IMG/VR virus record: IMGVR_UViG_3300028886_000003
Span: 81,331 to 145,330 of that record
Direction: 5' to 3' (one strand)
Origin: a virus
Taxonomy: Duplodnaviria > Caudoviricetes
DNA length: 64,000 bases
Shown here: in pieces, positions 34,322-37,134 of the stretch
Position numbering within the stretch: position 1 is the first letter of the stretch
Layout of the letters: each line of letters starts with the position of its first letter
Position numbers and translations under genes: made by a program
Notes under the pieces: generated by a model
The model's database searches: none
Seen by the model: only the letters and a program-made list of their open reading frames with translations
What the model was told of the DNA's origin: nothing

Positions 34322-34522
34322 TCATAATTCAATTATAATCATCTTTCTACCTACAATTTCTTTTTCTTCTGATGTAAGTTCATCAAATATCTCAGCCAAG
34401 TAATATTCAGTTACTTTTCTGATATATTTTATAGATTGTTCATCTACAATTACATCATTCAAAAATTCTTCATGATATCTTGTTGGTATTATTTCTAAAT
34501 ATTCTTCTATTTCTTTGCCCAT
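34322..34522 (-). CDS. hypothetical protein
   Basis: GAGGTGA RBS. Confidence 0.5.
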   Translation of the reverse strand: MGKEIEEYLEIIPTRYHEEFLNDVIVDEQSIKYIRKVTEYYLAEIFDELTSEEKEIVGRKMIIIEL

Positions 34523-34547
34523 ATAATCACCTCAATTTGTTTAAAAA

Positions 34548-34580
34548 TAAGCAGTTGTTAAGGGAGGGTACTCAGCTCCC
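34548..34580 (-). promoter_or_regulatory. cis-acting H-type pseudoknot motif, copy B
   Basis: GGGAG-CTGAGTACC-CTCCC-TTAACAAC-TGCTTA. Confidence 0.6.
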
Positions 34581-34594
34581 AAGATTTAACAGTT

Positions 34595-34795
34595 TTATTC
34601 CCAAAACATATTATCAAGAATGTCAGATTTGGGAAGTGCATCAATAGAACTTGCATACTGGCCAAATTTCATACATTTTACCGCAGGAATAAATCTCCTA
34701 CTTTCTGAAAGTCCATGTTGTTTTATTACAACAATGCTTTCATCTTCGATTAACATTTCACATTCCATACAATTGTTACAACAGTTTCTTTTCAT
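34595..34795 (-). CDS. Cys-rich hypothetical protein
   Basis: GAGGTGA RBS. Confidence 0.5.
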   Translation of the reverse strand: MKRNCCNNCMECEMLIEDESIVVIKQHGLSESRRFIPAVKCMKFGQYASSIDALPKSDILDNMFWE

Positions 34796-34805
34796 TTAAA
34801 TCACC

Positions 34806-35048
34806 TCATTCTTCTAAAATAATTTTTCTATTACTAAATACAATACTTTTAATATTATTAAAAGTAGTATCTCTACATCTAACAACATCTTCAATACCAT
34901 ATTTTTGATAAGATACAGCATTGATGATGTGATGCATTGCTACTTGATCACATTCTTCATATAGCCAAAGCATTTGAGCTTTTTTAGCTAAAGAAAGAAG
35001 AGATAAAGGAGGCAATTCCTTTAAATCTTCAAAATTTATTTCAATCAT
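34806..35048 (-). CDS. hypothetical protein
   Basis: GAGGTGA RBS. Confidence 0.5.
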   Translation of the reverse strand: MIEINFEDLKELPPLSLLSLAKKAQMLWLYEECDQVAMHHIINAVSYQKYGIEDVVRCRDTTFNNIKSIVFSNRKIILEE

Positions 35049-35057
35049 ATTATCACC

Positions 35058-35366
35058 TCAGTATTTGTAATCCCAAGTGTAGGAATCTATGTAGACATCC
35101 AATTCCTCTTGAATATCCCATATTTTTTGTTGAACTAGCTCATTAATCTTACGATCAATTTCTTCTAGTTCTTTAATGCCACATTCTCTTAATTGTCTTT
35201 GAAGAGTATTAACCCTCATATCAGGGTCAAGTTCTACACTATCCATAAAATCTTGCAATGACTCTCCCTCAAAGGCTAAACCTCCAACTAAAGGGTCATC
35301 ATCATCTTCTAACAATATTTCTTTTCTTTGTGCTATTGTTGGGTAAATATCTTCTATTTTTACCAT
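35058..35366 (-). CDS. hypothetical protein
   Basis: GAGGTGA RBS. Confidence 0.55.
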   Translation of the reverse strand: MVKIEDIYPTIAQRKEILLEDDDDPLVGGLAFEGESLQDFMDSVELDPDMRVNTLQRQLRECGIKELEEIDRKINELVQQKIWDIQEELDVYIDSYTWDYKY

Positions 35367-35394
35367 TTAAATCACCTCTATTAAGAAGAAGAGT

Positions 35395-35754
35395 TTATAA
35401 ATACTCTTCTTCAATTATATTCCAAATTTTATATGCTCTATCAGGTATAGGCCCAGTTACATGTCCTAATCTATCACATATGGTTTCCATACATAAATGA
35501 TAGAAATCTTCATCATTGGCATTTTCAAAATCCTGATAAACTTCCTCAGCAATTATGCCATTTTCATTGAATTCACTTGTATTAATAATTACTGCGATCT
35601 CTTCTTCGTTGGTATTAAATACAGTATCAAAACCAATTTCTTCAGCTTTGCAACGGTGAGTTTCTTTTACAAAAACTTCACCATTTTCATTGTTTTCATA
35701 CACATTTACTGCTCCAAGAACAGTACCTTTTTCATTTACTATTTTTAAAATCAT
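35395..35754 (-). CDS. hypothetical protein
   Basis: True start MILKIV after GAGGTAG RBS. Confidence 0.55.
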   Translation of the reverse strand: MILKIVNEKGTVLGAVNVYENNENGEVFVKETHRCKAEEIGFDTVFNTNEEEIAVIINTSEFNENGIIAEEVYQDFENANDEDFYHLCMETICDRLGHVTGPIPDRAYKIWNIIEEEYL

Positions 35755-35775
35755 ATTATCTACCTCATTAAATAT

Positions 35776-35803
35776 TGAATAGTTTAAGGACATATTCAGG
35801 TCC
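35776..35803 (-). promoter_or_regulatory. cis-acting H-type pseudoknot motif, copy C
   Basis: GGAC-CTGAATAT-GTCC-TTAAAC-TATTCA. Confidence 0.6.
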
Positions 35804-36023
35804 AAAGGAGTTTATCTCCAAAATATATCATCTCTCCAATCATCGTCATTATATTTATTAAGACAATGATTTCTCCTATATTTTCTTTGTTCTTCACTTA
35901 TGGGATCACACCATAAGGATTCCAATAATGATGTAATGCTTTTAATCATTATCATCATCCTCACATTGTTTACAATATTCGCAATCACAGAGGCAACTTT
36001 CTGCCTCTGCTATAATCCAAGTT

Positions 36024-36416
36024 TTATTCATTTTCATCACCTCTTAATTCTTCTATTTCTATACCTTCATTTTTAAAAATTTCGATATAAACTTCTTTTT
36101 TTTCTTTACTATGTGGTTCACAATTATTTAATATAATTGGCATTACTGGATCAATAACATCTTTCCACATTTTTCTACAATGAAAACGTAGCATTCTTTC
36201 TTGTATTTTTTGAATATCATCAACATATCTTATAATATCGTAAATTTCTCTTAGTACTAATATTTCTGCTACTGTTTCTGCTTCACATTCCCAGAACCAA
36301 TTATATAATATTTCAATTATATCAAAACCATCTATGGAATCCATATCTAAATCATACATACTAAAATGGTCTTTTATACTTCTTATAACTGGGTGGTAAC
36401 CATATTTAAATCTCAT
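36024..36416 (-). CDS. hypothetical protein
   Basis: GGAGGA RBS. Confidence 0.55.
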   Translation of the reverse strand: MRFKYGYHPVIRSIKDHFSMYDLDMDSIDGFDIIEILYNWFWECEAETVAEILVLREIYDIIRYVDDIQKIQERMLRFHCRKMWKDVIDPVMPIILNNCEPHSKEKKEVYIEIFKNEGIEIEELRGDENE

Positions 36417-36767
36417 ATTCTATTCCTCCAATATTTAGAAGTGGAATTATATTTCCACTCCATCTACATCTTTATTATATTTACATATAACAAAGTTTTG
36501 AAAATCAACAGCACAAGTACATTTGTGGCATAAATTATGCCTAATTTCTTCGTTTGCATTATGGCAAACATTATAATAATTTTTTTTCATAATATCATCT
36601 CATAATAGTTGGGATTATAAAATAACCCCAACTTTTTCAAGATCTTTAACACCTTTTTTATTAAAATCTTTTTGTTCGACAGTCTGAGTACCTTTTTTGT
36701 TAGCAGCATTTAAATGTGCTAACATGTTTCTACTAAATTTTTTCATTTGAAACACCTCTATTTAATT

Positions 36768-36795
36768 TAAGCAGTTTAATGACATACTTAGGTCA
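36768..36795 (-). promoter_or_regulatory. cis-acting H-type pseudoknot motif, copy A
   Basis: TGAC-CTAAGTAT-GTCA-TTAAAC-TGCTTA. Confidence 0.6.
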
Positions 36796-37134
36796 TAAAA
36801 TCAACTATTCACATACTCTGATTTGGGTATAAATCCCATCAGAGTAGTTCTCAACCCCATTATATATTGGGGTCCACCCATCCCTCACAAGGGCATCCAA
36901 ATCGCCCTGTGAGTAATCATGAACTCCACTACCAATGATTTTATCATTGATAATGGCAATTTGCCTACAATTCATACTTTTGCCTCCTTGTTAATTCTGT
37001 ATTCTTCTTTATTGAATACAGAAAAGTTTCTGCAAGCTTCTTCTAATACATCAACAGATGTATTATGTTTAACACATCTTCCACAGTAAAAATGACTGCA
37101 TTTACCATGGATATAGTCATTTCTTCTCATATAA

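Follow-up and report, generated by a model that had tools for sequence, protein, structure and literature searches.

Coremin (GUCCGAAGACGUUAAACUAC) is a compact RNA motif of beny-, cucumo-, umbra-, hypo- and chrysoviruses and other RNA viruses, in which a hairpin of 4 base pairs (bp), called hp1 and capped by a YGAD or YGNNAD loop, is followed by a spacer of 8-10 nucleotides (nt) and a second hairpin, hp2. It halts Xrn1 at the nucleotide preceding hp1, and this resistance needs a pyrimidine at the first loop position, a pseudoknot between loop and spacer (with a first connecting loop, L1, of 1 nt) and hp2 after the spacer. Xrn1 is also blocked when the loop is extended to 7-8 nt, as in CGAGUAA. 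Coremin proper is named xrRNA-C (xrRNA standing for exonuclease-resistant RNA) and its Watson-Crick variants xrRNA-WCC; scanning ribosomes stall at coremin as well, and it induces -1 frameshifting (Dilweg et al.; PMC6546385, PMC10520033, PMC10321173). Such blocks are not restricted to Xrn1: a flaviviral xrRNA also stops bacterial RNase J1 (PMC5760640), and they are thus mechanical rather than enzyme-specific. Here we describe three copies of a pseudoknot of about 28 nt in a 64,000-nt stretch of viral DNA (hereafter the window; positions 81,331 to 145,330 of IMG/VR record IMGVR_UViG_3300028886_000003), which forms the final 64 kb of a complete record with terminal repeats and has a GC content of about 29%. 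The three copies belong to a large uncatalogued pseudoknot family, as defined by R1, a covariance model built from unrelated viral contigs.

Each element consists of a stem 1 (S1) of 4-5 bp, a 1-nt L1 (C), a stem 2 (S2) of 6 bp formed between the S1 loop and the 3' tail, a second loop (L2) of 1-2 nt and an A-rich third loop (L3; Table 1). An earlier note on this DNA had quoted the three sites on the minus strand, and its sequences and positions are exact. S1 pairs fully in each copy despite different sequences (UGAC/GUCA, GGAC/GUCC and GGGAG/CUCCC in copies 1-3), and all six S2 positions pair as well, in UAAGUA/UGCUUA (copy 1, one G.U), UGAAUA/UAUUCA (copy 2, entirely Watson-Crick) and UGAGUA/UGCUUA (copy 3, two G.U). 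Between copies 1 and 2, two S2 pairs show compensatory double substitutions, one from A-U to G-C, the other from G-C to A-U. The loops of the window copies measure 8-9 nt and all start with C (CUAAGUAU, CUGAAUAU and CUGAGUACC). Copy 3 is a variant, with 1 bp more in S1 and 2 nt more in L3 than copies 1 and 2, and the two extensions may go together because L3 would span the S1 groove.

A strict pattern of the motif finds two matches in the window, while 0.00 are expected from 100 shuffles. A covariance-model search, proposed in the earlier note as a check, recovers copies 1-3 with R1 (scores in Table 1), although loop-tail pairing lies outside R1 scoring, and nothing else is significant in the window or in the whole 145,330-bp genome. 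Further support comes from two looser patterns. When loop, linker and tail classes are fixed and S1 is left free, matches occur in at least 120 IMG/VR contigs, and a perfect 4-bp S1, with many different stem sequences, is present in 106 of the 126 matches listed. When the covarying S2 positions are instead left as N, 114 distinct matches are obtained, in which the first variable pair is G-C (68), A-U (17), G-U (12), U-A (3) or C-G (1), and the second G-C (75), A-U (31) or another combination (8). An alignment of 78 sequences (A2) has 99% of its cells paired and a covariation score of 0.559 versus 0.20 for shuffled alignments (0 of 500 reach the observed value), and its pairing collapses once partners are slid by 1-3 columns; as A2 was chosen for pairing, the unbiased figures are the 106/126 count for S1 and the counts for the two S2 pairs.

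The top pair of S1 is C-G in 76 of the 78 A2 sequences and G-C in the other two, and at one S2 position U.G predominates, a pair that would become a mismatch if read on the opposite strand. This strand-specific pair, together with the shared orientation of motif and upstream gene in 83 of 85 viral cases, places the pseudoknot at the RNA level. An H-type pseudoknot, with both S1 and the loop-tail helix covarying in more than 110 distinct viral sequences, is thus confirmed, and with it the S1 covariation, the loop-tail pairing and the UUAA..AC linker that the earlier note had proposed from three sites. Copies 1-3 carry the family traits throughout: an S1 top pair of C-G (rarely G-C) type around a loop beginning with C, 6/6 loop-tail pairing, an intercistronic and co-oriented position, and a distance of at least 5 nt from the preceding stop codon.

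Table 1. Coordinates of the pseudoknot copies, their parts and neighbouring features (positions in the window, except for the last two rows, which list loci in other contigs).
Feature	Position	Strand	Details
Pseudoknot copy 1	36768..36795	minus	R1 44.8 bits, E 8e-9; pattern match versus 0 expected
Copy 1, parts	S1 36795-36792/36783-36780; L1 C36791; S2 36790-36785/36773-36768; L2 U36784; L3 36779-36774		L3 UUAAAC
Pseudoknot copy 2	35776..35803	minus	R1 44.1 bits, E 1.2e-8
Copy 2, parts	S1 35803-35800/35791-35788; L1 C35799; S2 35798-35793/35781-35776; L3 35787-35782		L3 UUAAAC
Pseudoknot copy 3 (variant)	34548..34580	minus	R1 21.8 bits, E 0.0024
Copy 3, parts	S1 34580-34576/34566-34562; L1 C34575; S2 34574-34569/34553-34548; L3 34561-34554		5-bp S1; L2 CC; lengthened L3 UUAACAAC
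TAG stop of upstream 56-amino-acid (aa) open reading frame (ORF; 36805-36975)	36805..36807	minus	9 nt before S1 of copy 1
43-aa ORFan behind copy 1	36615..36758	minus	GAGGUG ribosome-binding site (RBS) 36758-36753, ATG 36746
Small hairpin GGAG-AUAAA-CUCC	35807..35819	minus	Encloses TAA stop of upstream ORF (35814-35812); followed by UUU, then copy 2
119-aa ORFan behind copy 2	35395..35766	minus	GAGGUA RBS 35766-35761, ATG 35754
TAA stop of upstream 66-aa ORF (34595-34795)	34595..34597	minus	14 nt before S1 of copy 3
66-aa ORFan behind copy 3	34322..34533	minus	GAGGUG RBS 34533-34528, ATG 34522
Knot-GGUUAGGUUUAAA-integrase loci	L160, L166, L206, L238, L252, L048, L121		Weissella and related; context distinct from the scaffold one
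Firmicutes scaffold-module loci	L006:4150-4260, L071, L148, L149, L235 and similar		Second hairpin, e.g. CGUGG-UCGUUG-CCACG

The likeness to coremin, a plant-virus element, is close: leaving the loop aside, the two cores are identical. The family shares GACGUUAAACUAC, an hp1 of 4 bp closed at its top by C-G, and a loop-initial C serving as 1-nt L1, as illustrated by a phage copy reading CGUC-CUGAGUAU-GACG-UUAAAC-UACUCA. It also shares an identical G-UUAAAC-UAC/UGC spacer and extended loops (CGAGUAA in coremin versus CUGAGUAU or CUGAGUAA in the family), and occurs, like coremin, as single or repeated copies in intergenic regions and untranslated regions. The coremin spacer GUUAAACUAC is found as (N)UUAAAC-UGC/UAU in copies 1 and 2, as GACGUUAAACUAC in many family members and as UUAACAAC in copy 3. 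On the other hand, S2 is a full 6-bp helix of Watson-Crick and G.U pairs, whereas coremin has 2-3 mostly non-canonical contacts; the family loop starts with CU and the coremin loop with CG; and the family is carried by DNA viruses that infect archaea, bacteria and protists instead of by RNA viruses. The loops of copies 1-3 keep a pyrimidine at position 1 and an A before the last base, but with U at position 2 and a length of 8-9 nt they depart from the YGAD/YGNNAD consensus. Because of the 6-bp S2, the loop outside YG..AD and the absence of hp2 at the window copies and most others, the family is best filed as coremin-like and not as coremin proper. Our literature search found no link between coremin and phages (motif strings turned up only as unrelated primers), and the motif is not described in a genome-language-model preprint on prokaryotic noncoding RNAs.

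Other described systems are more distant. The xrRNAs of flaviviral and dianthovirus type have the same proposed job, a protein-independent mechanical block of 5'-to-3' exonucleases, and are commonly found in tandem, but they are larger (45-70 nt), ring-forming and unrelated in sequence. In Firmicutes and their phages, 5' stabilizers of messenger RNA (the SP82 polypurine stabilizer, ermC, aprE and the cryIIIA STAB-SD), like the intercistronic RNase III sites of T7, are intercistronic or leader elements that set segment-wise stability within one transcript and block RNase J1 or other exonucleases after processing. These, however, work through bound ribosomes, simple hairpins or RNase III stems, and none is a conserved pseudoknot. 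The earlier note had suspected an existing phage-associated Rfam motif, which was not found: Rfam 15 has no family on the motif at the gathering threshold or at E<=10 in the window, nor at E<=1 in five canonical loci from other phages, and the preQ1-I riboswitch (RF00504), xrRNA and tRNA models likewise give no Rfam match on it. We also considered the pistol ribozyme, the hammerhead, ToxI and attC, and rejected them, as their remaining helices and conserved cores are missing and Rfam gives no match. The family is therefore uncatalogued; it is also very widespread, and the archaeal virus host is a new aspect.

Indeed, the family occurs in viruses of bacteria, of archaea (the present methanogen virus) and of eukaryotes (giant viruses). 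Copies lie beside tRNAs in giant-virus contigs and in Nostoc phage NMeng1, and variant copies, several of them with C-G replacing the U.G pair, are found in cyanophage S-H35, Paracoccus phage ParMal1 and Vibrio phages. In Vibrio phage D301 the fold is intact and the gene context ambiguous, and its orientation was used for no conclusion. R1 detects copies with intact loop-tail pairing in 6 of the 141 Methanobacteriaceae genomes searched. One of them (L287:1501-1529, plus strand, genome G133) has an all-Watson-Crick S2, UGAGCA/UGCUCA, and precedes an anti-restriction-like gene of ArdC-N/M78-peptidase type, which suggests that it sits in an archaeal mobile element. In bacterial and archaeal genome contigs, a perfect S1 is present in only 24 of 120 strict-pattern matches; the rest are mostly chance matches, and the real copies come mainly from Firmicutes prophage-like DNA.

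Some contigs carry multiple copies, with up to eight in 7 kb. At L097:1307-1566 (plus strand, in a contig of record IMGVR_UViG_3300042...), about seven tandem knots occupy 260 nt ahead of a small gene, with a period of about 38-75 nt, and resemble tandem xrRNAs. Some members of this array have 11-nt loops or a long AU-rich L3, and an extra copy lies 5 nt past the stop codon of the small gene. A divergent second knot, GGAGC-CUGAGUAU-GCUCU..CGCAAAAC-UGCUC, is present at L034:6203-6234 (plus strand), about 50 nt downstream of a canonical one, and the linker is thus more variable than our search patterns allowed.

Protein matches of the virus itself lead first to a methanogen virus. The best match of its terminase is Methanobacterium virus PhiF1 (36% identity, E 4e-80), with a haloarchaeal virus second, and PhiF1 is also the best match of its major capsid protein (28% identity), a close homologue of which was found on a rumen contig. 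It encodes an archaeal histone of HMf type (PF00808, E 8e-15; G000:C1:57635-57811, minus strand, outside the window). In addition, Rfam calls a 111-nt tRNA, missed by ARAGORN, at positions 1677-1787 of the window (minus strand), which reads as a tRNA-Thr(UGU) with an insertion of about 36 nt after the anticodon loop; the insertion holds UACAAG, complementary to the anticodon loop CUUGUA, and looks like an archaeal-type spliced intron. Because of the PhiF1-like terminase and capsid, the HMf histone, the intron-type tRNA and the rumen capsid homologue, a Methanobacteriales methanogen of the gut or rumen is a well-supported candidate host, in agreement with the archaeal host that the earlier note implied by naming aCPSF. 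No pseudoknot copy was found in PhiF1, BLAST of a 5-kb stretch around the sites gave no match among named phages, and no relatives were found for a 439-aa neighbour protein.

Each window copy is flanked by small co-oriented ORFs that are 50-70 nt apart, and S1 begins 9, 8 and 14 nt after the upstream stop codon in copies 1-3. The knot ends 9, 9 and 14 nt before a GAGGT RBS (the earlier estimate of about 8-17 nt was about right) and 21, 21 and 25 nt before the ATG. The three downstream ORFs have no PHROG match. The only relative found for the gene behind copy 2 is a homologue (44% identity) in two other viral contigs, where the knot is absent and the genes are tightly coupled; gain and loss of the knot must thus be easy and independent of the flanking gene. 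No archaeal TATA consensus (a box of TTTAWATA type) was found within 80 nt upstream of the window copies, so the knots would be internal to a transcript. Transcription within a polycistronic minus-strand message of a methanogen virus is the best explanation for them. A signal for read-through or frameshifting was also considered and rejected, as the frame closes directly past the stop codon at site 1 and a slippery heptamer is absent at the window copies.

Simpler structures are found at gene ends in the same region. A weak hairpin, AAAUCA...UGAUUU (36824-36798, minus strand), encloses the TAG stop ahead of copy 1. Many small genes of the operon have their stop codon within a hairpin loop or stem, at 36631-36609, 36459-36440, 35819-35807 and 35411-35386 (all minus strand), with examples such as AGUGGAA-N6-UUCCACU and AAGAAGAGU-N8-ACUCUUCUU. 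These hairpins represent a second, simpler gene-end structure beside the pseudoknots.

Placement rules emerge from the family as a whole. We measured upstream spacing from the longest open frame ending inside the knot or at most 150 nt upstream of it: no upstream ORF ends within the knot or comes closer than 5 nt to S1, and 14 end exactly at 5 nt, which is the mode. The distance from the knot to the next start codon, most commonly 19-22 nt, is the looser of the two flanking distances. About 5 nt of messenger RNA are held in the ribosome channel beyond the A site. The 5-nt lower edge therefore places the knot as near to the stop codon as it can be without being opened by the terminating ribosome, and the knot appears to be kept outside ribosome footprints, as expected if ribosomes unwind it poorly.

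The genes behind the knot fall into several contexts. A head scaffolding protein is encoded downstream in about 22 of 64 cases; for example, the knot separates portal or minor-head genes from scaffold and major head genes in S. aureus Phietavirus B166 and 55, in L. johnsonii Lj771 and in the thermophilic phage D6E. An integrase (PHROG) follows in 6 of the 64 cases, with a conserved GGUUAGGUUUAAA box between the knot and the integrase gene. A tRNA gene lies downstream of 12 copies, within 5 nt in eight of them, and some knots are squeezed between two tRNAs at distances of 0-2 nt, without any ORF close by. A terminator-like hairpin with a U-run adjoins the knot upstream in 13 of 114 cases (versus none in control windows), and is found at most 75 nt downstream in three of 114. 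The Firmicutes scaffold module has a fixed order: stop codon, terminator-like hairpin, U-run, knot, 5-7 nt, a second hairpin of 5 bp, UAAAA or UUAAAC, and RBS.

From the likeness to coremin and the genomic context, we consider that the knot may be a direction-dependent mechanical roadblock that protects downstream RNA from 5'-to-3' decay, a reading to which we assign a probability of roughly 0.45. A long transcript would be cut, or would begin to decay, upstream of the knot; a 5'-to-3' enzyme would then stop at the base of S1; and the cistron or tRNA behind the knot would outlive the RNA in front. Methanogens have the 5'-3' exonucleases aRNase J and aCPSF, and Firmicutes and cyanobacteria have RNase J. 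These would be the candidate enzymes in the respective hosts, with Xrn1 in eukaryotes and possibly a scanning RNase E in gamma-proteobacteria. We favour this reading because of the coremin likeness, the position of the knot outside ribosome footprints, the hairpin-U-run-knot order and the tandem arrays, and because the knot is placed where expression must rise, as ahead of scaffold and capsid genes. The earlier note had listed a 5'-exonuclease block (against RNase J/aCPSF), a processing site, an antitermination signal and a translational enhancer; the first is the best supported of the four, through the same likeness and context, while antitermination gained no support. In archaea, the knot could moreover halt the aCPSF1/FttA 'torpedo' between genes and thereby serve for anti-termination inside an operon. 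It is possible, if doubtful, that a single fold, ancient or repeatedly exchanged, provides a universal protein-independent 5'-to-3' roadblock for viruses of three domains (phages, the methanogen virus and Methanobacteriaceae mobile elements, giant viruses and coremin-bearing RNA viruses).

Several observations weigh against a block of 5'-to-3' decay. Nearest-neighbour energies are weak (-2.1 to -6.6 kcal/mol for S1, about -1 to -3 kcal/mol for S2), so that the fold rests on covariation and not on thermodynamics. The hp2 required by coremin is missing downstream of copies 2 and 3, where nothing folds (minimum free energy -0.8 and 0.0 kcal/mol), and at copy 1 the nearest hairpin is 12 nt away, over the RBS and ATG. 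Most marine copies likewise have no hp2, and for these and the window copies the 45 nt downstream show no better folding than control; the Firmicutes scaffold-gene subclass alone has an hp2-like hairpin, 5-7 nt past the tail. Vibrio hosts have no RNase J, and a fold-compatible copy in their phages implies that a 5'-exonuclease is not the universal target. Knots wedged between tRNAs would be lost in tRNA processing, and a role at the gene end would account equally well for the close coupling to the upstream stop codon. Finally, the fold alone is no proof of resistance, since luteoviral and retroviral frameshifting knots of similar size, including that of beet western yellows virus (BWYV) type, fail to stop Xrn1 (PMC10321173). 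The luteoviral knots (BWYV and potato leafroll virus, PLRV) resemble the family in being of H-type and shorter than 30 nt, in having a short L1 that lies in the deep groove of S2, and in an A-rich L3 able to make minor-groove triples with S1; the family knots differ from them in being non-coding, in having no slippery site and in their longer S2.

Among the alternatives, an action on ribosomes survives best, although we regard it as unlikely. The knot would stop or position ribosomes at the gene boundary, and could in this way block read-through, sliding or re-initiation, or keep the next RBS open and so raise translation. The effects of coremin on scanning ribosomes and on -1 frameshifting speak for such an element, as do the enrichment of the knot ahead of highly expressed scaffold and capsid genes and the spacing itself: with textbook footprint sizes, the 5-nt minimum past the stop codon corresponds to the reach of a terminating ribosome, and the commonest gap of 19-22 nt ahead of the start to that of an initiating one. 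However, copies also lie upstream of tRNA genes, some of them between tRNAs without a nearby ORF, arrays of about seven tandem knots stand at no constant distance from a start codon, and the window copies have neither a slippery site nor an in-frame extension.

Quite unlikely is punctuation by an endonuclease, in which the knot would mark a cut site in polycistronic RNA, either for RNase P or Z, which would act on a tRNA-like helix, or for RNase E or Y cutting beside a structure, much as tRNAs do in mitochondrial transcripts and RNase III sites in T7 messenger RNAs. The strictly intercistronic position would fit, as would the knots adjoining tRNAs at 0-5 nt, the U-rich single-stranded linker between upstream hairpin and knot (seen in Firmicutes phages and, on a smaller scale, at window copy 2) and the length of the stacked S1 and S2, which at 10-11 bp may approximate a tRNA acceptor/T arm. 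Yet there is no T-loop, CCA or tRNA model match, and a cleavage site has no need of tandem arrays. Moreover, punctuation is compatible with a block of 5'-to-3' decay, with a cut upstream and a stop at the knot, and is not exclusive of it.

It is decidedly unlikely that the knot instead serves the upstream gene, protecting the 3' end of its message from 3'-to-5' exonucleases (PNPase, the exosome) or helping to form that end. The upstream stop is indeed the more tightly spaced neighbour, and at the Saccharibacteria locus L222 the knot lies between the stop codon and a downstream terminator. However, terminator-like hairpins are far more often upstream than downstream of the knot, and knots stand directly ahead of tRNAs and of genes with promoter-like AT-rich upstream DNA. 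Moreover, where crude ORF calls gave apparent convergent downstream genes, the cases inspected hid co-oriented starts or tRNAs.

A binding site for a protein (an operator, as in the T4 gene 32 pseudoknot) or for a small ligand (a riboswitch resembling preQ1-I) is very unlikely. Gene 32 and preQ1-I are also small H-type pseudoknots upstream of an RBS, the window copies lie just upstream of RBSs, and the geometry resembles that of the gene 32 pseudoknot (1-nt L1 and 6-7-nt L3) and of preQ1-I aptamers. But there is no sequence match; neither preQ1 nor any other riboswitch matches in Rfam, even at E<=10; the downstream genes are unrelated, with no gene shared across viruses of three domains and no sign of ligand or autoregulation; and a 6-bp S2 with 1-nt L1 and L2 would leave little room for a pocket. 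Finally, a signal at the DNA level (a promoter, a recombination or cassette junction, or a hairpin in single-stranded DNA) is hardly credible and largely refuted by strand asymmetry: the motif does lie at gene junctions, is gained and lost independently of the flanking gene and is overlain, in one S. aureus phage record, by an annotated promoter that is a BPROM prediction only, but its frequent G.U pairs are valid solely on the transcribed strand, its co-orientation with genes is strict, the window copies have no TATA consensus in the 80 nt searched, and two interlocked covarying helices would have no role in a duplex promoter.

If the knot blocks enzymes of RNase J/aCPSF type, exonuclease-resistant RNAs would serve viruses of bacteria and archaea generally, and not only eukaryotic RNA viruses; the family would be the first such class outside eukaryotic RNA viruses and, at about 28 nt, the smallest such element known, and thus an easy RNA-stabilizing part for engineered microbes. 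Viruses would then use it to raise the expression of chosen genes, such as that of the capsid scaffold, inside long operons. Culturable carriers exist among the S. aureus Phietaviruses, the Lactobacillus prophage Lj771 and the Geobacillus phage D6E. The archaeal copies add a third domain, and tie the element to the little-known machinery of messenger RNA decay and termination in methanogens.

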